This document shows, piece after piece, positions 3,285 to 54,475 of a DNA stretch of 64,000 nt; the first letter of the stretch is position 1, and each line of letters begins with the position of its first letter. A program made the translations under genes and the position numbers. The notes under the pieces were generated by a model. The model was not told the origin of the DNA and made no database searches. It was given only the letters and a program-made list of their open reading frames with translations. The stretch comes from Mobula hypostoma. Its lineage: Eukaryota. The DNA is taken from NCBI RefSeq assembly GCF_963921235.1, contig NC_086097.1, positions 159,528,001 to 159,592,000 on the forward strand, read 5' to 3'.

Positions 3285-3600
3285 AATCCTTCTCAATGAT
3301 AATCAATACAGGAGCGCATCAGGACTGCCTACTTAGCACCATGCCCTGTTCTCTCCATACCTAGAACTGTGTGGCTAATATTGCTCCAATGTCATGTACA
3401 AATTCACCAAAGACACCACCGATAGAGATAAAGAGAAGTACAGGGGTGAGGTAGGTCAGCTGGTGAGTAGTCGTGACAACAACCTTGTACTCATCAGTAA
3501 AGCCAAGGAGGAAGGAGAAGCCAAAATAGCACCAGACCTCATTTGAAGGTCTGCTGTGGAAATGATGTGCAGCTTCAAGTTCCTGATGTTAACCCTTTCA
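3285..3600 (+). mobile_element. Rex1/Babar LINE RT fragment, decayed
   Basis: Similar to the TGAPQGCVL…YKFADDTT…NNL segment of the 11654-12775 ORF. Confidence 0.55.
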
Positions 3601-3614
3601 TTCCACAAAGTTCA

Positions 3615-4930
3615 CGAGAATTAGTCTGGCAATAAAAGGGTTAACATATGAGGAACATTTGATGGCTCTGTACTCAGAGTTTAAAAGAATTTTTTTTTGT
3701 GGGGGGGGGAAGATCTCATTGAAACCTATTGAATATTGAAAGGGCTAGATAGAGTGGATGTGGAGAGGATGTTTCCTGTATTGGGTAAGTCTAAGACCTA
3801 AGGGCACAGTTTCAGAATAAAAGGATGTCCATTTAGAACATAGATGAAGAGGAATTTCTTTAGTCAAGGGGTAGTGAAGCAACTGTAGAGGCCAAGGCAA
3901 AGTTCAAAAGTTCAATGTACATCTATTATCAGAGTATATAGAAATTATACAACCTTGAGTTTCGTCTGCTTACAGGCAGCCACAAAACAAGAAACCCAAA
4001 ATAATCCATTGAAACAGAAAACAAACACCCAATGCAGAGAGAGAGAGAAAAAAAACAAATCATGCAAACTATAAAAGCAAGCAACAGCATTCAGAATGAA
4101 ATTGAGTCCTTAGACACGAAGCGCAAAGCATCCAAAGCAGACCCATAGCCTTAGTTCATCACACAGTGAGGGAAATCACCATGAAATTCACAGACATGAA
4201 GCCCAGAACAGCCAGAGCTGTAGAGAGAGGAGTAAATGTCGTGGAAAAGCAAGCGAAATCAGCCCGACCCTTGCCTCAAGTCCCGACATCCTGCTTTTTC
4301 AGTCTATCTGGGCCGGAATTTAAATTGTCCGAACACCAGGTGGTTCCGTGCACTAGGACCTGGGCCTTGCTGCAGTGATGCACTCTGAGCCTGGACCCTG
4401 CTCCTACATTCTGGCCTATATTTGACTTTTCCAAATCGGCACTTGGATTGATCCAATCTCACTCCTGATTTAGGTGGATGTGCTCCGAAACTACTCCGCT
4501 CCGACTCCTCTCTGGCTCGATCACTTCAACTCCATCTCTGAGTCAATCTCAATCATACCTCAACCTCACTCCGACCACTTCTCCTTAATGATGCCATGCT
4601 CCAACTCGCCTCGACCCTTGAGTCAGCCTTGCCTTCGCTCGCCTCTTCATTGTTTGCGGTGATAGCTTACCACGGGAAAAGTGTTATTAATAAAGTATTT
4701 AGTCATATTTCTTGCTTCATGAACCACTAGTAAGCTGTCACCCAACTTCAGCGGCATCATCTCAAACCATGTATATTTAAAGTGGTGGTTGACAGGTGCT
4801 TGATTAGTCAGGGACTGAAAGGTTACAGGGGAAGGTAGGAGAATGAGGTTGAGAGGGATAATAAATCAGCCACGATGGAATGACAGAACAGCCCTAATGG
4901 GCCAAATCGTTCCCATCTCTTATGTTCAAT
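3615..4930 (+). mobile_element. CR1 LINE 3' fragment interrupted by the 3897-4769 insertion
   Basis: CR1 ORF2 C-terminus (gatctcattgaaacctat…aggaatttctttagtcaaggg); resumes at 4770 with the CR1 3' UTR. Confidence 0.75.
3897..4769 (-). mobile_element. Non-coding non-autonomous retroposon with (TTTGAAC)n tail
   Basis: Tail aaagttcaaaagttcaa at the left end; its 3' ~130 bp resembles 60420-60552; interrupts a CR1. Confidence 0.6.
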
Positions 4931-5834
4931 ATCCTGGAGCATCTATTCTTGGCCCAGCACCTAGATGCAATCACAAAAGCAGAATTCCAGTGTCTCAGCA
5001 TTCTTAGGAATTAAAGACATCCACCATGTCATCGAAGACGCTGATGAACTTTTACAAATGTGCACTGATCCAGGTTGGTGCTGTATCCCAAAAGATAGAA
5101 TTTGTAGAATGCGTATGAGATGGTTTTTTGGAGCAATATGTTGTTGAGCCCACTGGGGAAAGGCAATTCTGGATGTGGTGTCATGTAATGAACCAGATTT
5201 GATTAAGGACCTTAAGGTAAATGAACTCTTAGGAGGCAGAGTTAATAATACAATGCGAGGGGACATTAGCAGGGATAAATGGCAACAACTAGAGTGTCTG
5301 GGGGCAGTTTGAGAGGCACTGGATAGGTGATGTACATCCCACAGATGAAGTATTCTAAAGGGAGGATGAGGAATCTGAGGCTGATAAGGGAAGTCAAAGA
5401 CTGCATAAAAGGGGGGGGGGGGGAAAGAGGGCATATAACATAGCAAAAATTAGTGGAAAGATAGAGGATTGGAAACCTTTTAAAAACCAACAGAAGGCAA
5501 CTAATAAAACCATAAGGAGAGAAAAGACAAAATAGGAAGGTAAGCTAGTCAATAAAATAAAGGAGATACCAGAAATTTTTATATATAAAGAATAAAAGAG
5601 ATGATAAAGAATAAAAGAGGCAAGAATGGATATTGGACTACAGGAGAATGTTGCTGGAAATGTAGTAATGGAGGACAAGTAAATGGCAGATGAACTTAAG
5701 TATTTTGTATCAGTTTTCACTGTGAAAGACACAAGCAGTATGCTAGAAATTAAAGTGTTTCAGCAAGCAGAAGTGATTGTAGTTGCTATTACCAAGGAGA
5801 AGTTGCTTGGGGAGTGAAAAGGTCTGAAGGTAGA

Positions 5835-7103
5835 TGTCAGGGCACTGGAGCAGAGATCCAATTGGAGAACCAGTACTGTGCACACAGTGATATTAATTGA
5901 GCAACAAATCCCGAGGTGCAAACAAAATTGGCATCAAAGTTCAGGCAGAGATCAAAACATCCAAAGAACTCCAAAAATCAGAATCAGGAAACAGGCAGAC
6001 TCAATATTCAGACAGATAGAATTCAGATACAAATTCTGGAAAGGCTCAGCAACACTCACTGTCACAATCTGTCTGTCTGTCTGTATCTTGTTTTACGGCG
6101 GTTGGCATCCAGCTTAATGGTGCATTACCGCCACCCTCTGCTCCAGAATGTGCACTAGACATACATTCTAAATCCCTTCACCCAATTGCGCACGCGCACA
6201 CATACATGCATATACACACATACACACACACACACAAACCTACACTTCACCCTCCCATCTTTGACCATCCTAGTATCCTATTCCTGTTTATTCGTCATAT
6301 TCTATAAAAAATCCCTGTACCCCTTAAAAACGGTAAAAATACCCGGACATGTGCTCTCTTACCCATGCCCAGCAACCCTTTTAATGTGAATTCCTGCATC
6401 CCCAACTCCCTTAATTTATTTCTCATCATCTCTCTCTGTATCCTATACTTCCTGCAACTCAGAACTACATGTTCTACTGACTCCTCTTCCTGACATTCCT
6501 CACACAATCCTGTCTGGTGTTTCCCTATCATTTTCAATGTTTTGTTTAATGCACAGTGTCCCAGCCTTAACCTAGTCCACACAATTTCCTCTCTTCTGTT
6601 TCCATTACCTACCCTAGTAACTGCAACACTCTTTTGTATTTGATATAAATGCCTCCCTTTCCCCTCCCTGTCCCATCTTTCTTGACTTTTCCCAGATTAC
6701 ACACTTAACCTCTGCTTTACTGATACTAATGTGCATTTCCACATTTTCTTTCTTTAACACCCTCTTTGTCAACTCATCCACCCTCTCACTCCCCTTCACC
6801 CCTACATGTGCTGGAACTGTCACAATCTGGCGAAAACACAGGACTAAAATACACTGAGCGGTAAACAGAGAGGCAGATGATATGTGGAGCACAACGAGAT
6901 AGAAGTGGCAACAAAACAGGTAATAATGAGAAACAGGTGAGAGGCAGAATACTCAGTAATACAAGGGCCAGAGTACAGCAGGATCGGGGACAGAAGCACA
7001 TGGGACATGAAAACAAACAAGAGCACATGGCAATACAAAACCACAGACTGACAGCTAGGGAAGGAAAATACAAAACGACAAATTTCAACTGGAGGTACTG
7101 ACA
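5835..7103 (-). mobile_element. Solo LTR containing a nested Nimb LINE
   Basis: TGTCAG…CTGACA termini; 5-bp TSD GTAGA at 5830-5834 and 7104-7108; orientation tentative. Confidence 0.8.
6072..6815 (-). mobile_element. Nimb/I-group LINE, 5'-truncated (RNase H end plus CCHC finger)
   Basis: VPAHVGVKGSERVDELTK and TRLRLGHCALN…CEECQEEESVEHVVLSC; (CAGA)n tail; 14-bp TSD actgtcacaatctg at 6058-6071 and 6816-6829. Confidence 0.8.
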
Positions 7104-8169
7104 GTAGATAAATAATCTGGACCAGATGGACTACAAACCTAGAGTTATGAAAGAGGTAGCTGAAGACATTATCGAGGCATTAGTAATGGTCTTTCAAGAA
7201 TCACTAGATTCTGGAATGGTTCTGGAAGAGTTGAAAATTGCAAATGACACTCCACTCAGTAAGAAGGGAAGAAGGCTGAAGGAAGGAAATTATAGGCCAG
7301 TAAGCCTGACCTCAGTGGTTGGAAAGATATTGAAGGCCATTATTAAGAATGAGGTTTCAGGATAATTGGAAGCACATGATAAAATAGGCTATAGTCAGCA
7401 TGGTTTCCTTAAGTGGAATCTTGCTTGACAAATCTGGTAGAATTCTCAGAGAAAGTAACAGATGGGATAGACAAAGGTGAGTCAGTGGATGCCGTTTGCT
7501 TGGAATTTTAGAAGGCATTTGACAAGGTGCTATACGCAAGTCTGCTTAACAAGATAAGAGTCTGTGGTATTAAAGATATTAGCATAGATAGAAGAGTTGA
7601 CCGACTGGCAGCAGCCAAGGAGTTGGAATAAAGGGGGCCTTTTCTGGTTGGCTGCCAGTAACTAATGGTAGTGTCCCCAATGGGTTGTTATTGGGGAAGC
7701 TTCTTTTCACATTAAATGTAAAAATTGATAGCTTGGTAGCCATGATTGTGGATGATACAAAGATAGAGGCAGGTGCAGGTAGTGTTGAGGAAGGAAGGAG
7801 GACCTAGCAGATTGGAAGTATGGGCAAAGAAGTGGCAGATGGAATATAGTGTATGGAAGTGTATGGTCATGCATTTTGGTAGAAGAAATAATGGCGTAGA
7901 CTCTAAATGGTGAGAAAATACAAAAATCAGAGGTGCAAAGGAACTTGGGAGTGCTTGTGTAGGATCCCTTATCAAAGAAAAGAAGTGCTGGCATTGGAGA
8001 GTGACCAGAAAATGTGCATGGGAATGATTCCTGATGAACATATGAGGAGCAGATATGATGATCTTTGCATCATCAATTGGGACAGGAGAGGTTCCGGAGG
8101 ACTGGAGGGTTGCAGATGTTAGACCGTAAGACAAAGACAAAGGAGCAGAAGTCAGCCATTCGGCCCATC

Positions 8170-10147
8170 TCCAGAGTCTCAGTAATCTCCTCCCTCTCCT
8201 CCCACAGTAGCCTGGGTTACATCTCGTCTGGACCCGGTGACTTATGGAACTTGATGCTTTCCAAAAGCTTCAGCACATCTTCTTCCTTAATATCTACATG
8301 CTCAACCTTTTCAGTACTCTGTAAGTCATCCCTACAATCCCCAAGATCCTTTTCCATAGTGAATACTGAAGCAAAGTATCTCTGCTATCTCCTCCAGTTC
8401 CATACACACTCTTCCACTGTCACACTTGATTGATCCTATTCTCTCACATCTTATCCTCTTGCTCTTCACATACTTGTAGAATGCTTTGGGGTTTTCCTTA
8501 ATCCTGTCCACCAAGGCCTTCTCATGGCCCAGTCTGACTCTCCTAATTTCATTCTTAAACTCCTTCCTGCTGTCCTTATAATCCTCTAGATCTCTATCAT
8601 TACTTAACTTTTTGAACCTTTAGTAAGCTCTTTTCTTCTTGACTAGATTTACAATAGCTTCTTTACACCAAGGTCACTGTACCCTACCATCCTTTCCTTG
8701 TCTCATTGGAGTGTACCTATGCAGAACTCCATGCAATTATACCCTGAACTTTTGCCACATTTTTTCCGTACATTTCCCTGAGAACATCTGTTTCCAATTT
8801 ATGCTTCCAAGTTCCTGCCTGATAACCTCATATTTCCCATTATTCCAATTAAACACATTCTTAACTTGCCTGTTCCTATCCCCCTCCCAAGCTATGGTAA
8901 AGGGGAGAGAATTGTGATCACTATCTCCAAAATACTCTCCCACTGAGCGATCTGACATCTGACCAGGTTCATTTCCCAATACCTGATCAAGTACAGCCTC
9001 TCCTTTTGTAGGCTTATCTGCATATTTAGTCAAGAAACCTTCCTGAACACACCTAACAAACTCCACCTGATCTAAACCCCTTGCTCTGGGGACATGCTAA
9101 TCGTTATTTGGGAAATTAAAATCTCCCACCACGACAACCCTGTAATTATTACACCTTTCCAGAATCTGTCTCCCTATCTGCTCCTCAGTGTCCCTGTTAC
9201 TATTGGGTGGTCTTTAAAAACACCCAGTAGAATTATTGACCCCTTCCTGTTCCTTACTCCCACTGAAAGAGACTCTGTAGACAAACCCTCCATGACTTCC
9301 TCCTTGCAGCCATGACACTACCTCTGATCAAAACTACTACAGCCCCACCTCCTTTGCCTCTCTCCCTATCCTTTCTGAAACATCTAAAGCCTGGCACTCA
9401 AAGTAATCATTCCTGCGCCTGAGCCATCCCGGTCTCTGTAATGGCCACAACATCATAGCTCCAAGTACTATGAGTCATCTGCTTTGTTCATAATACTCCT
9501 TGCATTAAAATAGACACATCTCAAACCATAGGTCTGAGCGTGTCCCTTTTCTATCACCTGCCTATCCTACCTCTCACACTGTCTACAAACTTTCACTATT
9601 TGTGAGCCAACCGCCTCTTCCTCCATCTTTTCAGTTCAGTTCCAACCCCCAGCAATTCTAGTTTAAACTCTCCCCAGTAGCCTTTGCAAACCTCCCCACC
9701 AGGATATTGGTCCCACTGGGATTCAAGTGCAACCCGTCCTTTTTGTACAGGTCACATCTGGCCCGAAAGAGGTCTTAATTATCCAGAAATATGAATCCCT
9801 GCCACCTGCTCCAATCCCTCAGCCACGCATCTATCCGCCACCTCATTCTATTCCTATACTCACTGTCATGTGGCACAGGCAGTAATCCCAAGATTATTAC
9901 CTTTGTGGTGCTGCTTCTCAACTTCCTTCCTATCTCCCTGTAGTATGTTTTCAGGACCACCTCCCTTTTCCTACCTATGTCGTTGGTACCACGGTCTCTG
10001 GCTGTTCTCCTTCCCGCTTCAGGATATCATGGACACGATTAGAAACATTCCAGACCCTGGCACCTGGAAGGCAAACTACCATCCGTGTTTCTTTCCTGCA
10101 TCCACAGAATCTCCTGTCTCACCCCCTAACTATAGAGTCCCCTATCA
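8170..10147 (-). mobile_element. CR1 LINE 5' half: ORF1 SGNH esterase and APE/tether remnants
   Basis: KVIILGLLPVPHDSEYRNRMRWRIDAWLRDW; KPTKGEAVLDQVLGNEPGQ…FGDSDHNSL; IKENPKAFYKYVKSKR. Confidence 0.85.
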
Positions 10148-11396
10148 ATACAAAAGTGAACAAGCCAATAATATTAAAGAGGATAGCAGACGTTTCTTCA
10201 GATACATAAAGTGTAAAAGAGAGGTGAGATTGGATATTGAACCACTGGAAAACAATGTCCCAGAGGTAGAAATGGGGGGGACAATGAAATGGTGAATGAA
10301 CTGAATAAATATTTTGTATTAGTCTTCACTGCGGAAGACACTCGCAGTATGGTGGAAGTTACAGGTGTCAGGGGGCATGAAATATGTGAAGTTACCATTA
10401 CTAGACAGAAGGGTCTTGGGAAACTGAATGGTCTAAGGTAGATAGGTCATCTGTACCAGATGATGAACACCCCAGAGTTCTGAAAAAAATGGCTAAAAAG
10501 ATTGCGGAGGCTTTAGTAAAGGTTTTCAGCAGTCACTAAATTTTCGAATGGTTCCAGAAGATTGCAAATGTCATGCCATTCTGCAAGACGGGAGAGAGGC
10601 AGAAGGAAACTATAGGCCAGTTACCTGACCTTAGTGGTTGGGAAGATGATGGAGTTGATTTTTATGGATGAGGTCTCAGGGTACTTGGAGGCACATGATA
10701 TAATAAGTGGTAGTCAACGTGTTTTCCTTGTTTGACAAAACAGTTGTAAGTCTTTGAAGAAATAATAAGCAGGAGAGACAAAGGAAAATTGGTTGACTTT
10801 GTGTACTTGGATTTTTAGAGGCCTTTGACAAGGTGCCACACATGAGCTGCTTAACAAGCTATGAGCCCATATTATTACAGGAAAGATTTTAGCATCAGTA
10901 AAGCAGTGGCTGATTGGCAGGATGCAAAATGTGGGAATGAAGGGAGAATTTTCTAGCTGACTGCTGGTGACTAGTGGTGTTCCACAAGGGTCTGTATTGG
11001 GATCGATTCTTTTTACATTATAAGCCAATAATTTGGATTTGGATGAATGAATTGATGGTTTGGTTGCAAAGTTTGAACACGAAATGAAGATATCAGCTGT
11101 GGCAGGTAGTTTTGAGGAAGTAGAAAAGCTACGGAAGGACTTAGCCAGATCAGGAGAATGGCCAAAAAACAATGGCAGATGGAACACAGTGTCGGGAAGT
11201 GTATAGTCATGCACTTTGGTAGAAGAAATAAATGAGTTGACTGTTTTTAAATGGATTGAAAATACAAAAAAACTGATATGCAAAGGAACTTGTGAGTCCT
11301 TGTTCAGGATTCCCTGAAGGTTAATTTGTAGGTTGAGTCTGTGGTGAGGAAGGCAAATGCAATATTAGCATTCATTTCAAGAGAGCTAGAATAAAC

Positions 11397-14368
11397 TTAA
11401 TACCTTATACATTATTGTTGCCAAACAATTGACACTAGAACGTACAATCATCACAACGATATTTGATTCTGCGCTTCCTACTCCCTGGATTACAAATAAT
11501 AAATATTAAAAATAGTAAAAATAGTAAAAATTAGCAAATATTAAACATTTAAATTATGAATCATAAATAGAAAATAGAAAAATGGAAAGTAAGGTAGTGC
11601 AAAAAAACCGAGAGGCAGGTCTGGATATTTGGAGGGTATGGCCCAGATCTGGGTCAGGATCCGCTCAGCAGTCTTATCACAGTTGGAAAGAAGCTGTTCC
11701 CAAATCTGGCCGTATGAGTCTTCAAGCTCCTGAGCCTTCTCCCGGAGGGAAGAGGGACGAAAAGTGTGTTGGCTGGGTGGGTCGTGTCCTTGATTATCCT
11801 GGCAGCACTGCTCCGACAGCGTGTGGTGTAAAGTGAGTCCAAGGACGGAAGATTGGTTTGTGTGATGTGCTGCGCCTTGTTCACGATCTTCTGCAGCTTC
11901 TTTTGGTCTTGGACAGGACAACTTCCATACCAGGTTGTGATGCACCCTATGGTGCATCTATAAAAATTAGTGAGGGTTTTAGGGGACAGGCCAAATTTCT
12001 TTAGTTTTCTCAGGAAGTGAAGGCGCAGGTGGGCCCTCTTGGCAGTGAACTCTGCTTGGTTGGACCAAATCAGGTCATTTGTGATATTGACCCCGAGGAA
12101 CTTAAAGCTTTTGACCTGTTCCACTTGCGCACCACCGATGTAAATTGCGTCGTGTGGTCCATTACTCCTTCTGAAGTCAACAACCAATCCCTTTGTCTTG
12201 CTGAAGGTGAGGGATAGGTTATTGTCTTCGCACCATGCCACCAGGTTCTTAATTTCCTCTCTGTACTCATCATTACCTGAGATACGGCCTACAATTGTTG
12301 TGTCATCAGCAAACTTATATATTGAGTTTGATGGAAACTTGGCTACACAATCATGGGTGTACAGTGAGTACAGCAGGGGTCTGAGTACACAGCCTTGTGG
12401 GGCACCGGTGCTCAGAGAGATTGTAGAGGAGAGCTTGTCCCCTATTTTTACAGCCTGGGTCCTGTCTGTGAGGAAGGTGAAGATCCAGCTGCAGATCTGA
12501 GTGTAAAGTTCCAGGTTCCAGAGCTTAGGAATCAGTTTATTTGGAATGATGGTATTAAAGGCAGAGCTGTAGTCAATGAAAAGGAGCCTTACATATGCAT
12601 CTTTATTCTCCAGGTGTTCTGAGGAGGAATGTAGGGCCAGAGAGATGGCATCTGCCATTGACGTGTTGCTCCGGTAGGCGAATTGCAAAGCGTCGAGGTT
12701 GACCGGTAGGCTGTGGTTGATGTGTGCCATAACCAATCTCTCGAAGCACTTCATAGCAATTGATATCAGAGGCACAGGTCAATAGTCATTCAGGCATACC
12801 ACCTTGCTCTTCTTCAGCACTGAGATTATTGTTGCCTTCTTAAAACACGAGGGGATCTTAGACTGAAGCAAAGAGCAGTTGAAAATGTCAGCAAACACTC
12901 CAGCTAGCTCGCTTGCACAGGTCCGAAGAACCCGTCCTGGGACACCATCCGGGCCTGTCACCTTCCTTGGATTTATCTTCAGGAAGGCCCTTCTAATGTC
13001 CTCCTTGGTGGCGATGATCTCGATGCTACCAGCTCCGGTTCATCCAGAGGGAGCAGGACGCTCCTCTTCTGTTCGAATCTTGCGTAGAATATGTTATGTT
13101 CATCAGGAAGAGAAGCGCCACAGTTATTGATATTCCCAGCCTTTTCTTTGTGCCCAGTGATCTCATTTAGACCCTGCCATAGTCTACTGGCATCCCTCTG
13201 GTTAGCCTGGCCTTCCAACTTAGCTCGATATTGCCTCTTGGCGCCCTTAATGGCTTTCCGGAGTTCACGCCTGGGTTCCGTGTAGCGACTGGTATTCCTG
13301 GACCTAAAAGACGCAGCTCTAGCCTTTAAAAGGGACTTGACCTCATAATCCATCCAAGGTTTCCGATTAGAGAATGCCCAGTTTGTCTTGCGAGACACAC
13401 AGTCCTCTGTGCATTTCCAAATAAAGTCCGTCACAGCTGAGGCATACTCATCGAGGTTAGCTGCCGAGTCATTGAATACTAACCAATCCACCAATTCAAA
13501 GGAGTCACGGAGGACCTCATCCGCTTCCTCTGTCCAACGCGACCGTACTTTTGTCACCGTGACCTCCCGCTTCAGTTTCTATTTGTAAGCCAGGAGCAGG
13601 AGTACGGCCTGATGATCCAATTTTCCGAAGTGAGGTCGTGGGACGGAACGGTAGGCATCCTTGACTGCTGTGTAGCAGTGGTCAAGTATATTCGGGCCTC
13701 TAGTGGGGCAGGAGACATGTTGGTATAACTTTGGCAGCACCTTTCTGAGGTTGGCCTGGTTAAAGTCCCCGGCTGTAATGAGCAAAGCCTCCAGATACCT
13801 GGTCTCAAGTTCACTGATGTTGGCATACAGTATGTTCAGAGCACACTCCACGTCCGCCTGGGGGGGAATGTAGACCGCTGTCAGTATGACCGAGGTGAAT
13901 TCCCGTAGCAGATAGTAGGGACGACACTTCACCGACAGGTGTTCCAGGTCCGGGCTGCAGGAGCTTGTCAGTGCCACTGTGTCCGAGCACCACGCAGTGT
14001 TGATCAGTAAGCAGACACCACCTCCCTTTGTCTTTCCCAAAGACGCCTTGCGGTCCATCGGATGGATTGAAAATCCCTCCGGTCAGATGGCACAGTCGGG
14101 GGTGGCAGGGGAGAGCCAGGTCTCAGTGAAACATAATACACAGCAGTTCTTCATCTCCCTGCAGTTGGTGAGTCTCCCTTTAAGATCATCCACCTTGTTC
14201 TCTATGGCTTGCACATTAGCTAGTAGGATAGTGGGCATAGGGACCCCGAAGCCTTTCAGCTTTAATCTGACCAGCAGCCCAGCTCTTTTCCCACGCTTCC
14301 TCTGTAAATAGTGCATCTTTCCAGGTTTACATCGATGCAGTGTGTTGTTGTCAGCTCTTTGCAGTTGG
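11397..14368 (-). mobile_element. Rex1/Babar LINE, near full length, APE-RT ORF broken by a few stops and frameshifts
   Basis: APE motifs CVLCFTETWL, GGGVCLLIN, AVYIPP, AGDFN; RT motifs [29 protein letters not shown]; 3' end nearly identical to 63811-64000. Confidence 0.9.
11654..12775 (-). pseudogene. Rex1 reverse transcriptase, 373-aa open segment of a disrupted ORF
   Basis: Non-LTR RT motifs including FADD; C-terminal [10 protein letters not shown]…FGNSFFP; upstream frame disrupted. Confidence 0.85.
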
Positions 14369-21440: not shown

Positions 21441-23598
21441 TGGATATTTTGCATTGCACATAATCATTATTTTTGTGGAACACACGCTGTCCCTGAGGAA
21501 CTGAAATAATTCAAATGTAAGCTGCCATTTTCTGAAACTTGAAAAAAGAGCTGACCTTCATTATCTTTCCATGCGACAATATGAATATTTTTATCCCTCT
21601 TCATTTGCTATGCATTATTTCAATTTGACAACACAAAAAGGTCTCTGCACCTGAAGTAGGTATATGTCCAATAATGCAAATTTTGTAAATGAGTCAGTTG
21701 ATGACTAACAGGAACGAGATTCTGTAAAGTGCATCCCAGTGAGTTAGTTCATCAAATCCAGCAAACAGAAGCATTGTCAGTAGAAGAGTTTGGTTTGATA
21801 TTTACCTAAGATTAATCAGAAATGGCACATAACTGGTTTACTTAGATACAATCTAAGTCCAACTTGTAACTAGAAAAGTTGCACCTATTAGCAATCACAC
21901 AAGGCAGTTTATTAAGTAATCGGGAATCAATAATTAATGAAATAGTGCATTGGGTGGAATGTTATTGGGACAAGTGGTGTAAACTGTAATAACTTATGGA
22001 TCATGCTAACTTCATTGGGCTCTTTGAGAACCTACTATGGATGGGGACGCCAATGCTCACCTAAACACAATAATTAGGGGAAGGAAGGCAGTATCAATGT
22101 ACTTATGCATAGTATACGCTGCAATCGCACAAATTCCACTCTTCATGTGGAAGTCTTGATACAGTGTCATAGGCTGTTCATTCACAAGAGAGAGTTGTAG
22201 CTCATTGGACCCTCCCATGTTATCTTTCCCTATGTATCAGAAACAGATCTTCCAAAGGAGTTAACAGGAATGAGTGTACTAAATAATATTCTTGACAAAA
22301 GAGCATCATAATTAATTATATTGTGGCCTGCATCAACCATTATTCCATATATGAAGAAAAACACAAAGGAGCTGGAGGAACTCAAAGGATCAGGCGGTAT
22401 CTATGGAGGGGAATGAACCGTCAATTCTTTGATTGAAACCATTTATCAGGACTTCATTATTCTATTAATGAAATATTTTACACCATTTTCAGCCCAGAAA
22501 TCAAAATCTGAAAATTACTCACCATTTCCACTAAAGCCAAATAAAGACTGAGTTAAGCTGCAACGATGAATGACTTGGATTTGTAATTGACTTTGTAATT
22601 GACTTTGTGTTGTATTATCAGTTTAACTAAGCTGAATAAATCTAGCCATAGGACGATAAGACAGAGAAGAAGAATTGAACCATCTTACCCATCAAGTGTG
22701 CTCCAACATTCCATCAAGGCTGATTTATTATCCCTCTCAACCCATTCCCCTATCTTTTCCACACAACCTTTGATGTCCTGACTAATCTAAACACTATAGA
22801 TCTCCGCCTTAAATATATTCAATGACTTGGCCTCCACAGCCCTGTTGCAATGAATTCCACAGATTCACTACTCTCTGGCTAAAGAAATTCCTCTTCATTT
22901 CTATTCTAAACTGATGTCCTATTGTGAGAGATGTCCCTCTGGTCCTAGAGTCCTCCACTATGTATAGGAAACATCCTCTCCACGTCAATTCCATTGAAGC
23001 CTTCCAGTATTCAATAGATTTCAATGAGATTCCTAAACTCATTTTCATTTTCCTAAACTCCAGCGAGTACAATCCCAGAGCCATCAAATACTCCTCATGT
23101 GTTACTCTTTCATTCCCAGAATCATTTTGTGAACCTCCTCTGGATCTTCTCCAACACCAACACATCTTTTCTTAGATAAGGGGCTCAAATTGCTTACAAT
23201 ACTCTAAGTGCAGACTGACTCATGCCTTATAAATCCTCAGCATTACATCCTTGCTTTTATATTCTAGTTCTTTTCTGCTATGACTGCTAACATTGCATTT
23301 GATTTCCTTATCAATGACTCAACCTGCAAGTTAGCCTTTGGGGAATCCTGCATGAGGACTCCAGGTCCTTTGTACCTAGAAACATAGAAACATAGAAAAA
23401 CCTACAGCACAATACAAGCCCTTCGGCCCACAAAGCTGTGCTGAACATGTACTTACTTCAAAAATTAGCTAGGGTTAGCCATAGCCCTCTATTTTTCAAA
23501 ACTCCATGTGTCTGTCCAGGAGTCTCTTAAAAGACCTTATCGTATCCTCCTGCATCACCGTCACCGGCAGCCCTTTCCATGCACTCACAACTCTCTGC

Positions 23599-24455
23599 TG
23601 TTACGTACCCCGTAACTGGGTTGCCAAACCAGCAGAAATGGATCACTCAGTTGGAGTCTGGAGTACTAGGACTAAGAAAGTTTTATTAAAGAAACAAGCA
23701 ACACATTAATCGAAAGGATAATAAATGCAACAGTTCAGCGATGATAAACGCACATGTGCACAGAATTAAGATAACCGCATCAATCAAGCTCTATCGTTGT
23801 CTAGGGGTAAATGACCAATTTCAAAATGACTCAAAGTTCAGTCCAGTTTGTAGTTCAGTTCGCAGTAATCGTTGTCATGGCGATGGACAAGGTGGGGAAG
23901 AGAGAGATAGAATAGGAACAACTGATCATTCAGCACAGCTTCACTCACAGACCAGCGGGATGGCTCACAAACAGCTTTTGGGCGGGTCCTTGGTGATGTC
24001 ACCTGAGGTCACCGACTGTGACCCCTCCTCCAGATGCGGTCGATCCTCTGCAGTGAACCCGGCACCCAGGCAAGGGCGGACACACACCGGGTTCCCGCTG
24101 ATTGTACCTTTCCACCCTGTGCGTTGTCCGATACTTCTCACCACTCGTGAGAGGCGCACCGCTTCCAGGGTCTCGTTACCTCGGGTGGCGTGTGTGTCTG
24201 TCTTAGCGAACCTGTCCCTTTTTATCCCCCTGCTGGGGTATCGCCTGTCCATCACTTCAAACAGTTCAGGGTTCAAAGGGGGGAGCCGCTCCAGACAGCT
24301 CTTCCTCCCACATCCCTTCATTACACATCTCCAGACGCTGCTCCATTGTTCCTTATCTCTCCTTCCCCTGAGGGCAGGTGGCAGACCAACTGCTGATGCC
24401 ACTGATGCTAGCCCAGGCCAGCAAACATCTTAATTTTATGTGTATTCTCGTAACA
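23599..24455 (-). repeat. 3' LTR
   Basis: TGTTACG…CGTAACA; direct repeat of 27799-28656. Confidence 0.95.
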
Positions 24456-24467
24456 CTTCCCCCCTTT
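24456..24467 (-). promoter_or_regulatory. Polypurine tract
   Basis: AAAGGGGGGAAG on the minus strand abutting the 3' LTR. Confidence 0.85.
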
Positions 24468-24627
24468 AAGGATTTTTACCGGGAGGTAAAAATTACAAAC
24501 ATGACTACATTATCTGATACATACACAATATACATCTTTAACAGTTATTTAGCTAATACAGAGAATTTGAAATTGTCAACACCTTGACAGACAGTCATCA
24601 CATTTTCTGTTCCTTTTACACGTGTTA

Positions 24628-27600
24628 TTAATAATCCCTTAGACCAGGCTCCAACTCAGCAAACTTCATAGTGGCCAAAAACACTGATGAATTGCGACCA
24701 ATGTAACCTCTCATTTGGTTTTGTCCCGGACCACAACAACAAGGGTCGTCCCATTCCGACTCAATTTTCCCTCGCAAGGGCTTAGTAGGAGGGGGACGGG
24801 TATTGACCGCAGAGTTATTGCAAAACTTCCTGCAGTACCCCACCATCTCCAAAAGCCTTCTGAGGGCCCTCTTGTCTGTCGGGGTTGGGAGGTCAGCGAT
24901 AGCCTGCACTGTAGCTTGCATCACTGCCAGCTGCCCCTGTGTCACCACAATTCCCAGGTAAGTGACATTCGTGTGGCCGAATTCATTTTTTCCAAGGTTC
25001 ACTATCAAGCTGGCTTCAGACAGCCGTGTTAAATTGCCAATACACACCTCTGTGTTCATCAGCCCTTTAGTCACTGAATTACTCAAAAAATATGGGTGTT
25101 GTTTACTTGGCCGCCCTATTGTAACCACAATCACCCAACGTCCCAGTTCTTTGCATTTCCTCGGGACAATCAAACACATGGGTGCGAGTCGTTTAATTAC
25201 TCCTTCGGGGATTAAGGGAGAGACCTTATCAGTAGACCTGGCCAAAACAATAGCCTTCTCCCATCTGACCGATCCCATCCTAATCTTTTCAAAATGGTTT
25301 TTTCCTCTTAGCAGGGGGCCCCTAGCTTCATTGATTTCCACGCTAACACCGACTAGGTTTGTTAGCATATCAAAAGCCGGTGACCGTCTCAGTTCGCGTC
25401 GGTCATGATCAATAACATTTTTCCCCCTGGGCAGCCGGTAACTCTCTTTCATGATTCCACCAACTGTTTCCTCCAGCACCGCAAAATGTCCACCGGGGGG
25501 TACCTCGTGGGCCATGTTAAAAACCTCATCCCCATAACTCTTTTGCACCACCCCCCACTCCTCATCTGCGGATGCTGTACTTGATTTCCCTTTCTTCCTT
25601 AGCACCTCCTTATCCGCACAATAGCTTGTCAAGGCTGTGTCAGAGAGAGCGGTCTCGGCCAAAACCATCAGCCCCTCGTCTCGCTCCTGCGTCTGCACAA
25701 ATTCTTTCCTGGCTACTGCTACGTCTGTCCCAGCTCCCTCACTACCTCTTATCTCACTACACCCTGTCTCATACAAGGTTGGCAGAAATGTTTCAGCCAA
25801 ATTCACCATCGCGGGCGGGGCCTCCATGCTGGCAGGCTGACCCGTCAATCTCACGACTGGGAACACGATTCCTCCGGCGATGTCATTACCGAGCAAGACT
25901 TCCACGTCTTTCATCGGTAATTCGGACCTCACCCCGATCGTGACTAGTCCAGAGACCAGGTTGCTCTGTAAATGTATCTGGTGCAAAGGGACTGACTCTG
26001 TCCCTTCCCCAACACCTTTGACCTCTACCTCCCCAGTCTGGGTCTCTGAGCTAAACTCTAATACACTCTTCAGTATTAGTGACTGACACGCTCCCGTGTC
26101 TCTCCAGATCCGCACTGGAACTGGTTTTAACCTCTTTTTCACTGACACCAGTCCGGCCGAGATAAACCTCTCGCGCCCTTCCTGGACTTTTTCAGACCTG
26201 TCCTTCCCTAGCGGTTCGCTTAACAGCTCGATACAGCCATTCAAAATTTCCGCTTTTCCTTTCCCCGTCTCCTTCCTTGGGGCAAAGCACCTGGACGCAA
26301 AGTGTCCGACTTTCCCACAATTATAACAGACGACCCCAGGAGACTTCCTACCAGACTGCTCCCGGTCTACCTTATCCTTTTCACTAGTCCCCGGCTTACT
26401 TTCTGACTTTTCCGGTGGACTCTCCCCGCCGTCCTGACTACCCTTCTGGTAGCCTTTACTCGGGGCAACCTTCATTTTATGCGTCAACGCATACTCATCC
26501 GCTAACTTAGCAGTTGCGGCTAACGTGGCTGCCTCTTTCTCATCGAGGTAGGGTCTCATACCCTCAGGGACACAACCTTTAAACTGCTCAATCAGAATCA
26601 GTTGCAGCAGTCTGTCATAATCCCCCTCTACCCCTTTCGAGGCGCACCAACGCTCACAATATGTTTGCATCTCACGAGCAAACTCCAAATACGTGCGGTC
26701 CCACCGCTTCCTCGCATTCCGGAACCTCTGCCGGTATGCCTCCGGGACCAACTCATAAATCCTGAGGATGGCCTCTTTCACCACCTCATACCTCTGGGCA
26801 TCTTCCGCGGATAAAGCGGAGTAAGCTTGTTGGGCCTTCCCTTTCAGTACACTCTGAAGTAAGACAACCCACTTATCCCTCGGCCAGTCCTGACTTATAG
26901 CTACTTTTTCGAAGTGGAGAAAGTACCGATCCACATCGGTATCGTCAAATGGGGGAACCAGCCTAACCTCCTGGGTCGCCCGGAACCCTCCACCTTGGTT
27001 CGGCACGAGCCCCTGCTCGGCCCTTATCTTTAACTTCTCCAGCTCAAATTCCCTTTCCCTCTGTTTCTCCTCTCTCTCCAACTGCCTGTCCCTCTCTCTC
27101 TCTTCTCTCTCCAACTGTCTTTCTCTCTCTTGCCTTTCTACCTCTTTCTCTCTCTCCCGCCTTTCTAACTCTTTCTCTCTCTCCCGCCTTTCTAACTCTC
27201 TCTCTTTCTCCTGCCTTTCTAACTCTCTCTCTTTCTCCCGCCTTTCTAACTCTCTCTCTTTCTCCTGCCTTTCTAACTCTCTCTCTTTCTCCCGCCTTTC
27301 TAACTCTCTCTCCTGCCTTTCTAACTCTCTCTCTTTCTCCTGCCTTTCTAACTCTCTCTCTTTCTCCCGCCTTTCTAACTCTCTCTCCTGCCTTTCTAAC
27401 TGCTTCTCTTCGTGTTCTAACTGCCGTACCCGGAACTCGTGCTCGAGTCTCAGTTTTTCAAGCTGTACCTGTACCGCGTCTCCAGCAGGTTTTTCAATAG
27501 ACACCACCCCCAGCTCACCTTGGGGAAACACACCTTTAGATACATAGTGCTCTACAATAGCTCTGTGTATCTCCTCTCTCCTCATTGTCGACTTCACCTT

Positions 27601-27699
27601 GGCAAGATTCACCCGTTTGGCCACAGCTATCAATTCCGATTTCCTGGCATCCTCTAATGCCTCCAAGGTCGGCCCCTTTATAAATTCCTCAACCTCCAT
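24628..27699 (-). CDS. Gag (E/R/K repeats, SCAN-like domain, CCHC knuckle), aspartic protease and vestigial IN/RT/RH polyprotein, 1023 aa
   Basis: CYNCGKVGHFASRC; RDTGA…LLGND; IN remnant AHEVPPGGH precedes RT remnants (KQHPY, VTYLG, PTPTDKRALRRLLEMVGY), i.e. Gmr1 domain order; no YxDD. Confidence 0.9.
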   Translation of the reverse strand: MEVEEFIKGPTLEALEDARKSELIAVAKRVNLAKVKSTMRREEIHRAIVEHYVSKGVFPQGELGVVSIEKPAGDAVQVQLEKLRLEHEFRVRQLEHEEKQLERQERELERREKERELERQEKERELERQERELERREKERELERQEKERELERREKERELERQEKERELERREREKELERREREKEVERQERERQLEREERERDRQLEREEKQREREFELEKLKIRAEQGLVPNQGGGFRATQEVRLVPPFDDTDVDRYFLHFEKVAISQDWPRDKWVVLLQSVLKGKAQQAYSALSAEDAQRYEVVKEAILRIYELVPEAYRQRFRNARKRWDRTYLEFAREMQTYCERWCASKGVEGDYDRLLQLILIEQFKGCVPEGMRPYLDEKEAATLAATAKLADEYALTHKMKVAPSKGYQKGSQDGGESPPEKSESKPGTSEKDKVDREQSGRKSPGVVCYNCGKVGHFASRCFAPRKETGKGKAEILNGCIELLSEPLGKDRSEKVQEGRERFISAGLVSVKKRLKPVPVRIWRDTGACQSLILKSVLEFSSETQTGEVEVKGVGEGTESVPLHQIHLQSNLVSGLVTIGVRSELPMKDVEVLLGNDIAGGIVFPVVRLTGQPASMEAPPAMVNLAETFLPTLYETGCSEIRGSEGAGTDVAVARKEFVQTQERDEGLMVLAETALSDTALTSYCADKEVLRKKGKSSTASADEEWGVVQKSYGDEVFNMAHEVPPGGHFAVLEETVGGIMKESYRLPRGKNVIDHDRRELRRSPAFDMLTNLVGVSVEINEARGPLLRGKNHFEKIRMGSVRWEKAIVLARSTDKVSPLIPEGVIKRLAPMCLIVPRKCKELGRWVIVVTIGRPSKQHPYFLSNSVTKGLMNTEVCIGNLTRLSEASLIVNLGKNEFGHTNVTYLGIVVTQGQLAVMQATVQAIADLPTPTDKRALRRLLEMVGYCRKFCNNSAVNTRPPPTKPLRGKIESEWDDPCCCGPGQNQMRGYIGRNSSVFLATMKFAELEPGLRDY
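27061..27420 (-). repeat. Coding tandem repeat (27/21-bp units) encoding ER(Q/R)EKEREL
   Basis: cctttctaactctctctctttctcc(c/t)g repeated in frame. Confidence 0.9.
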
Positions 27700-27775
27700 T
27701 TCTGCTGTTTGTCTTTTCTTTCTTTCGGGAATTTTAACCCAATTGATTTACTCCGTCCCAAATTTAGCGTTCAAA

Positions 27776-27794
27776 ATCGCGGACGAGAACCCCA
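27776..27794 (-). promoter_or_regulatory. Primer binding site, tRNA-Pro-like
   Basis: TGGGGTTCTCGTCCGCGAT, 4 nt downstream of the 5' LTR, versus canonical TGGGGGCTCGTCCGGGAT. Confidence 0.75.
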
Positions 27795-27798
27795 CTTA

Positions 27799-28656
27799 TG
27801 TTACGTACCCCGTAACTGGGTTGCCAAACCAGCAGAAATGGATCACTCAGTTGGAGTCTGGAGTACTAGGACTAAGAAAGTTTTATTAAAGAAACAAGCA
27901 ACACATTAATCGAAAGGATAATAAATGCAACAGTTCAGCGATGATAAACGCACATGTGCACAGAATTAAGATAACCGCATCAATCAAGCTCTATCGTTGT
28001 CTAGGGGTAAATGACCAATTTCAAAATGACTCAAAGTTCAGTCCAGTTTGTAGTTCAGTTCGCAGTAATCGTTGTCATGGCGATGGACAAGGTGGGGAAG
28101 AGAGAGATAGAATAGGAACAACTCATCATTCAGAACGGCTTCACTCACAGACCAGCGAGATGGCTCACAAACAGCTTTTGGGCGGGTCCTTGGTGATGTC
28201 ACCTGAGGTCACCGACTGTGACCCCTCCTCCAGATGCGGTCGATCCTCTGCAGTGAACCCGGCACCCAGGCAAGGGCGGACACACACCGGGTTCCCGCTG
28301 ATCGTACCTTTCCACCCTGTGCGTTGTCCGGTACTTCTCACCCACTCGTGAGAAGCGTACCGCTTCCAGGGTCTCGTTACCTCGGGTGGCGTGTGTGTCT
28401 GTCTTAGCGAACCTGTCCCTTTTTATCCCCCTGCTGGGGTATCGCCTGTCCATCACTTCAAACAGTTCAGGGTTCAAAGGGGGGAGCCGCTCCAGACAGC
28501 TCTTCCTCCCACATCCCTTCATTACACATCTCCAGACGCTGCTCCATTGTTCCTTATCTCTCCTTCCCCTGAGGGCAGGTGGCAGACCAACTGCTGATGC
28601 CACTGATGCTAGCCCAGGCCAGCAAACATCTTAATTTTATGTGTATTCTCGTAACA
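27799..28656 (-). repeat. 5' LTR
   Basis: Direct repeat of 23599-24455; on the minus strand a TATA-like GATAAAAAGG (~28420) and AATAAA (~27885). Confidence 0.95.
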
Positions 28657-30678
28657 CTGCATAAAAAACTTACCCCTGCCGTTTCCTCTGTACCTGCTTC
28701 CAAGCACCTTAAAACTGTTCCCTTTTGTGTTAGTCATTTCAGCCCGGGGAAAAAGCTTCTGATTATCCACAGGATTACCTCTGATTATTGAATTTTCTCC
28801 CTGTTTAGAAAATAGTCTACGCCTTTATTCCTTCTACCAAAGTTCATGACCTTACACTTCCCTACACTGCATTCCATCTGCCACTTTTATGCCTATTCTC
28901 CCAATCTGTGTACGTCCTTCTGCAGACTCCCTGCAGCCTGATTTGCAGCACCTGGTCAAAGCCCCTTTGAAAATCCAAGTAAACAATATCCACTGACTCT
29001 CTTTCGTCCATCCTGCCTATTATTTCCACAAAGAATTCCAACAGGTGTGTCATGCAAGATTTCCCTTTGAGGAAACTATGTTGTCTTTGGCTTATTTTAT
29101 CATGTGCTTTCCAAGTACAGCAAAAACTCATCTTTAGTAATGGACTCCAGCATCTTCCCAACCACTGAAGCCAGGCTAACTGGCCTACAATTTGTTTTCT
29201 TCTGTCTCTCTTCTTAAAGAGTTGAATGACATTTGCAATTTTCCACTCTTTCGGAAACCATTCCGGTATCTAGTGATTCTTGAAAAATTATTACTAATGC
29301 CTTCCACAGTCTCTTCAGCTACTTCTTCCAGAACTCTAGGGTGTAGTCCATCTGGTCCAAGTGACTTATCTACCTTCAGCACTTTCAGCTTCTCAAGCAC
29401 CTTCTCTTTAGTAATAACAACTACACTTACTTCTGCACCCTGACACTCTCAGATTTCAGCATTGTGCTAGAATCTACCACAGTGAAGAGTGATGCAAAAT
29501 ACTTATTAAGTTCTACTGCCGCGTCTTTGTCCCCCATTAATACTCTCAAGCATCACTTTCTAGATGTCTGATATCCACTCTTACCTTTCTTTTACTCTTT
29601 ATATATCCGCAAATATTTGGTATCCTCTTTTATATCATTGTCTAGCTTGCCTTCATAGTTCATCCTTTATCTCCTTTTGGTCTTTTAGTTGCCTTCTGTT
29701 GGATTTTAAAAGCTTTTCAATCTTCCAACTTCCCACTAATTTTTTTATATTATTATGCTCTCCTTTCTTGCTTTCATTCTGTCTTTAACTTCCCTTGTCA
29801 GCCATGGTTGCATCACAGCATTATCCATAAGATATGCCACATTGACCAATAAATAAAGGAGATAAAAATTAATTAGAGTCATGGAGTTGTACCGCTTGGG
29901 AATTGGCTCTTAGATCTAACTCATTCATGTCCTGCCATGATGCTGATCTAAATTAGCCCCATTTGCCCGTATTTGCTCCATATCTCCATATATCTCAAGC
30001 CTTTTATATCCATGTACCTGTCCAAATATTAATCATTCATTAATGAAGTTCGATATTCCCCTAATGGGGTTAGCTTTCTGTTCTGAAAATGGAAGATATA
30101 GATTTAAGGTGAGGGGGGAAAGATTTAAAACGGACTTAAGCGGTAACTTTTTCATGGAAAAGGTGATGCTTTTATGGGATGAGCTGCCAGGAAGAATAGT
30201 TGAGTCAGGTGGTAGAATTCTATGGACTTCCAGAACACCAAAAGAAACCACAGTTAAAAATATTTTAAAATATTTTTTAACTCAGTTATTACATGCCCTG
30301 AAGGTTCCATTCATATCCTGCCAATGTCACATCAGAATTCCATGGGAGTTTCCATGAAGGTTCAGGATCTATGTTATGCAAGTTCCATGAAACGGAAATG
30401 ATTTCAAAGAAAATCCTGAAAAGATTCTCAATGTCATGTGTAAAAACTGCCTTCAATCAACAACACTCCTTCTGCATTGGAAAGCACTACTTTCAAAAAT
30501 AGCCATAGGAAATTAGTCATTTGCAAACAGGCATACTGTTAAAAATTCTAACTACATGGTTGTCTGGGAAACTCCCCACTGTTCTCTTTGTAAATAAATT
30601 GAACTGCCTTGGCCTTCTTTGTTTAAAACTTGCTCAGAGTCCATGCAGGGAGATAATATTACAGATAGACAACCTTAC

Positions 30679-53700: not shown

Positions 53701-54475
53701 TCAGCAGACGATGCGCTTCTTGGTTCATCCATGGCTTTTGGTTTGGGAATGTACAAGTCTTTGTAGGTACACACTCATCCACACAGGTTTTAAGGAAGTC
53801 GGTAACAACTGCTTCATACTCATCCAGACTCGCAGATGACTCCCTGAACACAGTCCAGTCCACCATTCAAAGTAGTCCTGTAAGCGCTCCTGTGCTTCCC
53901 TTGTCCATACCCTCTTGCTCCTCATTACTGGTGCTGCAGTCTTCAGTCTCTGCCTGTACTCAAGGAGTAGAAGTACAGCCAGGTGATTAGACTTCCTGAA
54001 GTGAGGACGTGGAATTGTGCGGTAAGCACTCTTGATCTTGGTGTAACAGTGGTCCAGTGTGTTGTTTCCTCTGGTACTATAAGGAATTTGTTGATGGTAG
54101 TTATTTGGTGACTTTATCAAGCTTGCCTGGTTAAAATCCCGCAGAATAATGGGGAAGGTATTAGAGTGTGCTGTTTCATGCCTCTTGATTACATTGCTCA
54201 GATCGTCCAGAGCCTGTTTGACATTGGCCTGAGGTGGAATTTTCACCAATACCAAAATAGTTGCTGAAATCTCCCGCAACAGGTAAAATGGATGATACTT
54301 CACTGTGAGATATTCCAGGTCTAGAGAGCAGAATTGGGACAACACTGATACATTTGTTGATCATGAGGCATACACTACCTCCTCTGCTTCTGAGAGACTC
54401 AACTGATATACCTGATGGTGTATAGTAAACCCATCAATCTGAATCGCTGCATCCAGTGTGGAAGGAGTTAATCAG
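50795..54475 (-). mobile_element. Rex1/Babar LINE (APE-RT, decayed) interrupted by a solo LTR
   Basis: [37 protein letters not shown]; (TCTGAT)n-like tail at ~50795. Confidence 0.85.
52696..53693 (+). mobile_element. Solo LTR with internal tandem repeats
   Basis: TGTCACA…TGTAACA; tataaaa and attaaa motifs; repeated ccagctgagt…ctccgagttggg units and (CCAAGT)n; Rex1 resumes on both sides; TSD degenerate. Confidence 0.7.

Follow-up and report, generated by a model that had tools for sequence, protein, structure and literature searches.

The 64,000-nucleotide window analyzed here (Mobula hypostoma contig NC_086097.1, positions 159,528,001 to 159,592,000) carries on its minus strand a complete long terminal repeat (LTR) element, at 23599-28656 counted from the first letter of the window, with both LTRs, a primer binding site (PBS), a polypurine tract (PPT) and a 4-bp target site duplication (TSD). 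It belongs to a Gmr1-type non-autonomous family, here called the gutted family, whose single open reading frame (ORF) encodes Gag and protease followed by 395 codons of integrase (IN), reverse transcriptase (RT) and RNase H (RH) remnants in order, with the catalytic cores absent. The frame of this tail has probably been kept open by cis-acting selection for translation that runs nearly to the 3' end, regardless of the residues encoded (probability roughly 0.7), and the evolutionary evidence for a kept frame is unusually clean.

The stop-free ORF of 1,023 codons reported in the first-pass annotation is present, and all IN, RT and RH motifs quoted there were found, in IN-RT-RH order, by comparison with a full-length copy from the same genome. 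Its claim that no IN, RT or RH core is recognizable also stands, as Pfam matched only SCAN and zf-CCHC over the whole ORF, with no other match up to E 10, and the tail searched alone matched no family at E ≤ 1. The integrase core and C terminus are gone through a net in-frame loss of 888 nt right after the IN N-terminal remnant, and the RT fingers and palm through a net in-frame loss of 384 nt after the RT start remnant. The YxDD site reads CIGN in 93 of the 94 aligned copies, the remaining one being gapped, and the RT end and thumb form the best-kept tail block (74% amino acid [aa] identity at aa 892-968). The extent given in that annotation, 24580..27699, was too small; among the signals it called intact, the LTRs, PPT and TSD were, whereas the PBS departs from the tRNA-Pro complement. 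The end of RH was correctly placed just past the stop, with a further RH piece lying in frame and ending at a 14-nt frameshifting deletion (codon 1011) that creates the last 12 residues and the stop of the ORF. The frame said to be unbroken across deletions is thus so in net terms over codons 629-1010 and is broken at codon 1011.

The element is not single-copy: the RT-deletion junction of the gutted family has 1,515 exact matches in the genome (0 for the reversed control), and the intact YIDD pattern 66, a ratio that is rough since the two patterns differ in degeneracy. The statistics rest on 98 copies taken by position (95 from among the first 97 matches of the window contig and three from the next contig), leaving out the window element and one tandem neighbor; the first 60 copies collected were similarity-ranked and hence biased. 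Four of the 98 were dropped before alignment, and the substitution counts exclude L157 and 60-nt windows of low identity. Complete copies with their own 4-bp TSD and paired LTRs number 81, of which 47 show less than 0.5% LTR divergence, marking the family as active and recently spread, so that a defective internal structure is common to many independent TSD-flanked insertions, as in a non-autonomous LTR family.

Across codons 629-1010, nine net junctions relative to the full-length copy are all multiples of three (in order 36, 15, +3, 888, +3, 384, 54, +3, and 258 nt), and the four indels from codon 1011 onward are not. Eight junctions were checked and are fixed in 94 copies, save one misaligned copy at one junction. 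With a shared indel defined as one present in at least three copies, raw tail counts gave 10/11 shared and 16/49 private indels in frame, and 0/5 for shared indels of the untranslated region (UTR). After 23 of the 49 private events were dropped as misaligned and the rest merged by hand, 8/9 shared versus 6/26 private tail indels were in frame (Fisher test, P = 0.0009). Inherited indels overall comprise 17 in frame against two late ones out of frame, which bears out the expected multiples of three for codons 629-1010; two short tail stretches resemble compensated frameshifts, depending on the alignment. In-frame deletions of 27, 21, 12, and 18 nt spread later, the copies retaining these segments being older, and the tail is shrinking by in-frame steps. 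About 240 to 280 tail substitutions left no stop, where 8 to 9 were expected from the private spectrum (P = 1e-4 to 5e-4). Every break shared by at least three copies falls within the final 160 codons, which fits a penalty fading toward the end of the ORF. Splicing as the source of the deletions was rejected, since the large junctions, in their best alignments, lack GT...AG ends (one starts with GT and ends with TT) and the deletions arrived in stages, with ambiguous junction placements. Alternative coding frames in the tail were likewise rejected (7 to 32 stops each; 30 and 32 in the other two sense frames).

Several points weigh against this reading. The chance of nine in-frame junctions, (1/3)^9 = 5e-5, comes from a test inflated by the choice of an element with a long ORF, and only the net lengths are firm, the large-deletion junctions being alignment-ambiguous. 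Depletion of tail stops within the gutted family is not significant (shared 1/113, private 10/297, P = 0.30). A non-CpG stop at codon 863 occurs in 5/95 rows on at least four local haplotypes and is unexplained; a CpG stop at codon 976 is found in four copies, and a 1-nt insertion at codon 993 in four, three of them fairly close relatives. Such late breaks may be passed on, and they show that the frame rule is not absolute. The tail is broken in 39/94 copies and gag-pro in 28/94, and selection for translation leaves unexplained why the tail was not deleted outright. A history with no frame selection, with the open frame owed to recent amplification of a lucky founder or to hitchhiking, would draw on the long-ORF ascertainment, the recurring late stops and the nonsignificant within-family stop test. 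It is nevertheless very improbable: the tail's own branch carries about 0.25 substitutions per site and is therefore not recent, the inherited indels stand at 17 to 2, and a second family, described below, replicates the pattern independently.

Selection on residues was assessed in 93 copies plus the window element from variants shared by at least three copies, their nonsynonymous-to-synonymous (N:S) ratio being expressed relative to that of private variants outside CpG sites. This ratio was 0.12 for the capsid (P = 7e-7), 0.39 for gag-pro and 1.0 for the tail. On the family's own branch, synonymous (dS) and nonsynonymous (dN) divergence of the tail were about 0.27 and 0.245 over 345 aligned codons (dN/dS about 0.9), compared to a dN of 0.04 to 0.08 on partner branches over the tail-aligned codons; the protease region gave dS 0.24, dN 0.08 and dN/dS of about 0.33. 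Because of these ratios, Gag-protease is regarded as conserved and the tail residues as largely not, and the dN/dS contrast raised in the first-pass annotation came out as a constrained gag-pro and an unconstrained tail.

The tail polypeptide itself might matter, either as a bulk spacer that takes the place of Pol in the particle or because a leftover RT-thumb or pre-integrase subdomain binds RNA or the partner polyprotein, a possibility rated as fairly improbable. In its favor and to the disadvantage of frame-only selection, dN/dS on the tail branch is about 0.5 to 0.6 for the RT end and thumb, whose protein identity is the highest of the tail, and about 0.7 for aa 630-776, so that some protein-level constraint, past or present, is possible; the capsid constraint, for its part, may be partly inherited from the partner by recombination. 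In a structure model based on an alignment of 46 sequences, confidence is high for the N-terminal domain, the coiled coil, the capsid and the protease. The tail has weakly predicted structure at aa 661-700 and 910-953 (model confidence, pLDDT, 50 to 65) and pLDDT <50 over aa 704-890 and 954-1023, where the alignment may be poor. Foldseek with the ORF model returned nothing at E ≤ 0.001, its top rows being aspartic proteases (best E 3.8e-3). For the mouse intracisternal A-particle (IAP) 1Δ1 element, reviews have the fusion protein acting in cis (PMC6466679, PMC7411935). Opposed to this are a within-family thumb N:S ratio of 1.56 (not significant), a dN at or above dS for aa 777-873 and 969-1011, the spread of the four later deletions, and a second-family frame that is open across decayed capsid and protease. 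The new function of the tail entertained in the first-pass annotation is disfavored by a dN/dS of about 1 and the low-confidence tail model.

Truncated or frameshifted C termini could also spoil the element's own Gag-protease through instability or faulty processing, with the RNA not being the target. The protease constraint on the family's own branch would imply that the product matters in cis, but the present C terminus is itself frameshift-derived and the second family has no recognizable capsid or protease to protect, which makes this explanation distinctly improbable.

The second family was exposed in the M. hypostoma genome by a search with a stingray tail. The stingray evidence consists of gene models (Hemitrygon and Hypanus), which encode Gag-protease and then an in-frame decayed second gag-protease (E about 1e-5 to 1e-14). 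Proteins P0010, P0012, P0013, P0015, P0016, and P0018 carry such a decayed copy related to the second family; in P0010, the same kind of tail stands behind a different gag, together with an in-frame protease deletion. The members in M. hypostoma (L281 at 3312-8867, L279, L280, L282, L284, and L290-L318) are older, LTR-flanked and non-autonomous, with frames of 817 to 1,110 codons in four copies picked for long frames. Pfam gave no SCAN, CCHC or integrase-core (rve) match and a partial RT, and the protein search returned only three distant full-length polyproteins among 8,000 candidates scored. In 30 copies ranked by similarity to L281, the N:S ratio of the decayed capsid-protease was 1.07, non-CpG stops were 0/358 among shared versus 52/1,383 among private variants (P = 1e-5), with CpG stops recurring, and ORF indels were in frame in 10/12 shared versus 73/230 private cases, with 0/6 for shared UTR indels. 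Two events counted as out of frame, a 13-nt insertion and a 1-nt deletion, look like a compensated pair belonging to the reference copy itself. The open frame is therefore kept even with no capsid or protease left to protect. Constraint was seen at the RT/RNase H end (ratio 0.3 to 0.5) and in the coiled coil (ratio 0.23, P = 0.02).

The most likely reason for the open frame, as read from sequence evolution, would be that translation almost to the 3' end aids the RNA in cis, so that breaks in the tail are removed. The window ORF stops 172 nt before the 3' LTR, and its predicted 3' UTR of about 1.0 kb would measure about 2.1 kb with a stop after the protease. Tentatively favored, at somewhat less than even odds, is a route in which unspliced RNA with a long 3' UTR would escape stop-triggered decay; the avoidance of nonsense-mediated decay put forward in the first-pass annotation may hold. 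In Rous sarcoma virus, unspliced RNA with early stops undergoes decay before it can be packaged, according to a review (PMC9143442). Ranked second, and rather unlikely, is that nascent Gag would prolong the stay of its own RNA at the assembly site, which the coiled-coil constraint of the second family would suit. Close to an even bet, although short of it, is the generalization that Gmr1-type elements of rays obey a cis rule, spreading only if translation comes within some 200 nt of the 3' LTR, under which parasites would repeatedly evolve frames of about 1,000 codons with nearly free residues. Its candidate instances are the gutted-pol tail, the second family, decayed along nearly the whole frame, and the decayed gag-protease tail of stingrays.

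Copies of a full-length partner were found in the genome by an integrase-core search, which supplies the closest autonomous family. They have frames of 1,440 to 1,580 codons and LTR divergence of 0.000 to 0.007, with a single continuous Gag-Pol frame of 1,551 to 1,580 codons, up to 1,564 aa from the first Met. All Pol domains were detected by Pfam in partner L067 in the order IN-RT-RH, which its relatives share, and the LTR, PBS and PPT are common to the partner and the gutted family. A multi-copy family, an existing partner and absent Pol cores support the earlier suggestion of a Gag-protease parasite: a young copy encodes its own Gag and protease, and RT, RNase H and integrase would likely be taken in trans from the rarer partner.

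The window element is 96 to 100% identical to full-length copy L064 over the LTR and gag, 80 to 90% over the protease, 69 to 85% over the tail and 95 to 100% over the 3' UTR and LTR. The reverse mosaic is L209, a full-length copy with the protease and tail start of the gutted family (L209:2700-3500), which is read as parasite sequence passing into the helper. In trees built from about 150 copies (about 99 gutted, 52 full-length), label changes between the two kinds numbered 18 for the LTR, 17 for the capsid and 10 for the UTR, versus three for the protease and one each for the IN remnant and the thumb, and older gutted copies sit nearest older partners. Because of this interleaving, the lasting identity of the family is placed in a protease-plus-tail cassette between up-to-date partner ends. 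LTRs and capsid are exchanged with the partner in both directions while the private cassette is retained, the exchange presumably running through co-packaging and template switching, and the mosaics also point to mobilization in trans.

PBS forms were surveyed at window positions 27776-27794 and in copies L111-L208, L061-L079, and L209-L248. Among 95 gutted copies, a single mismatched form occurs in 66, the exact complement of tRNA-Pro in 14 and a hybrid in four; among 41 full-length copies, 17 have the mismatched form and three the exact complement. The mismatch is seemingly favored, because tRNA-primed copying should erase it, yet it persists for long in both kinds. It might offer an escape from tRNA-fragment silencing.

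A frame of at least 900 aa is kept in 29/47 gutted copies at <0.5% LTR divergence, 7/18 at 0.5 to 1.5% and 1/16 at 1.5 to 5%; since the open share falls with LTR divergence, the copies are born open and later decay. Contigs of a second organism cross the IN and RT junctions, with older-type variants, and the family is therefore not limited to M. hypostoma. In the protein collection, the tail has only six relatives, all from this species. Contig depth was far higher over the LTR and flanking repeats than over the internal region, as DNA would give, and is silent on transcription; the gutted family is presumably expressed. NCBI gene models contain the ORF (proteins 99% identical, M. hypostoma), one of them under a host gene name, as a domesticated host gene or a segmental duplication product might. 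For the family, this origin is refuted by the separate TSDs and paired LTRs of 81/98 copies and the mostly broken state of the older ones. The protein P0003, named "metastasis-associated in colon cancer protein 1 isoform X1" by NCBI, is a gutted-element polyprotein.

The order protease-IN-RT-RH defines Gmr1 elements, and a SCAN-like capsid domain is linked to them. The Gmr1 label would accordingly rest on domain order, with integrase upstream of RT in the window remnants and in partner L067, on the single Gag-Pol ORF of the partner and on the SCAN-like capsid. The best PDB sequence match of the profile, Ty3 Gag-Pol, supports the Ty3/Gypsy level only. Autonomous Gmr elements of fish have a single Gag-Pol ORF of 1,506 to 1,634 aa (PMC11117352), like the partner; unlike them, the window element has lost the IN core, RT palm and RNase H core, and with these the intact YxDD, RNase H and DDE core of an autonomous element.

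IAP 1Δ1 has an internal deletion that creates one in-frame Gag-Pol fusion, needs Gag and Pol in trans, is helped in cis by the fused frame and outruns its full-length partner (PMC6466679, PMC7411935). The gutted family works alike, as an in-frame fusion with Pol likely supplied in trans, without being a member. IAP 1Δ1 belongs to the class II endogenous retroviruses and has a single described deletion, of 1.9 kb, whereas the gutted family encodes a Ty3/Gypsy-type polyprotein with a series of about 17 in-frame indels, has kept its protease and shows long near-neutral drift of the tail; its proposed cis promotion is read from evolutionary signals. Plant TR-GAG and similar elements keep Gag or Gag-protease without working RT or IN, some with decayed and patchy pol remnants, and the passages describing these GAG/PROT elements contain no test of frame preservation (PMC13570524). 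The gutted family resembles them in its Gag-protease ORF and lack of enzymes, and differs from TR-GAG, which has GAG/PROT domains only, in its 395 in-frame pol-remnant codons, vertebrate host and uniform tail. Mouse hepatitis virus has defective interfering RNAs that depend on translating a long frame whose product is possibly irrelevant (PMC4395149); these concern experimental, cytoplasmic RNA-virus replication, whereas the gutted family is a germ line retrotransposon studied through sequence evolution.

In soybean, a non-autonomous element reportedly keeps pace with its autonomous partner by LTR swapping, as Du et al. are said to have described in 2010. By comparison, the gutted family also exchanges capsid and 3' UTR, keeps a private protease-plus-tail cassette and shows backflow into full-length copies. 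At the level of literature listings, with most subscription journals and repeat databases outside their coverage, no account was found of the gutted family or of a Ty3/Gypsy element selected for its frame only.

The system pulls apart two pressures that are usually confounded, one on the protein product and one on translation as such. With natural copies in the thousands, a partner and a second family available, the cis role of translation in LTR retrotransposon replication, a question previously raised by IAP 1Δ1 and by work on retroviral RNA decay, can be tested with nothing more than sequence and RNA data. That a frame is long and stop-free does not prove that it encodes a functional protein, and such frames have already been annotated as host genes. 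The gutted family also provides a vertebrate case of a parasite that tracks its helper by LTR and capsid swapping and holds a private protease. If the cis rule is true, families under it would represent natural, long-running selection for a frame without a sequence and a nursery of new in-frame fusions.

The features of the window element are listed in Table 1.

Table 1. Features of the gutted-family element, in window coordinates.
Feature	Position	Strand	Basis
TSD CTGC, 5' side	28657..28660	.	Read from sequence
5' LTR, 858 bp, TG...CA	27799..28656	-	1.5% from LTR of autonomous copy L064
PBS, tRNA-Pro type, mismatched majority form	27776..27794	-	tRNA-Pro genes with matching 3' end
Single ORF, 1,023 aa, Gag-protease-tail	24628..27699	-	ORF list, translation
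Gag N-terminal helical domain and R/E-rich coiled coil, aa 1-212	27064..27699	-	Model pLDDT mostly 80-97
Capsid, SCAN-like C-terminal domain, aa 241-408	26476..26979	-	Pfam SCAN, E 1.5e-12
CCHC zinc knuckle, aa 457-471	26287..26331	-	Pfam zf-CCHC, E 5.2e-6
Aspartic protease, aa 505-610, DTG at 534-536, family-specific lineage	25870..26187	-	Model pLDDT about 75-88
Pol-derived tail, aa 629-1023, open frame, residues near neutral	24631..25815	-	Alignment to full-length copy
Integrase N-terminal remnant, HH kept, CC lost	25396..25542	-	Alignment to full-length copy
IN-RT linker and RT start remnant	25081..25371	-	Alignment to full-length copy
RT end and thumb remnant, YxDD replaced, 54-nt in-frame loss	24739..25080	-	Alignment
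In-frame RNase H piece, aa 991-1012, after 258-nt in-frame loss	24664..24729	-	Alignment
RNase H C-terminal remnant, out of frame, now 3' UTR	24577..24627	-	Alignment
PPT	24456..24467	-	Read from sequence
3' LTR, 857 bp, AATAAA at LTR position 770	23599..24455	-	Sequence
TSD CTGC, 3' side	23595..23598	.	Read from sequence

The two LTRs of the element differ by eight substitutions and one 1-nt gap (hand count of the alignment). The R/E-rich repeat at 27064-27420 is built of 21- to 27-nt units and differs in length between copies; from the ATG to codon 229, other copies measure 379 to 652 nt and the window element 687 nt, and the net frame of the region is kept in 76/93 copies. Fragments resembling the RT and endonuclease of long interspersed nuclear elements (LINEs) were recognized by eye from translations at 11654-12778, 53725-54360, 10714-11364, 22809-23165, and 28862-29131, and the element appears to be inserted into one LINE-like fragment. 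The exchange of LTR and capsid with the partner, the second family and the late stops recurring in several copies go beyond the first-pass annotation.

Tandem arrays with shared LTRs, of gutted and full-length kinds, include L021-L023 and L028 (G000:C18:110.88-110.89 Mb), as well as L067/L068 and L116, L165, L167, L170, L201, and L203. In L157, codons 563-750 are replaced by a segment that, as a separate block, matches neither the window element nor L064, and L133, L139, and L163 similarly have a replaced segment or larger deletions or insertions. L123 and L207, which are not near neighbors, share the same 199-nt deletion at codon 498, either recurrent or recombined.

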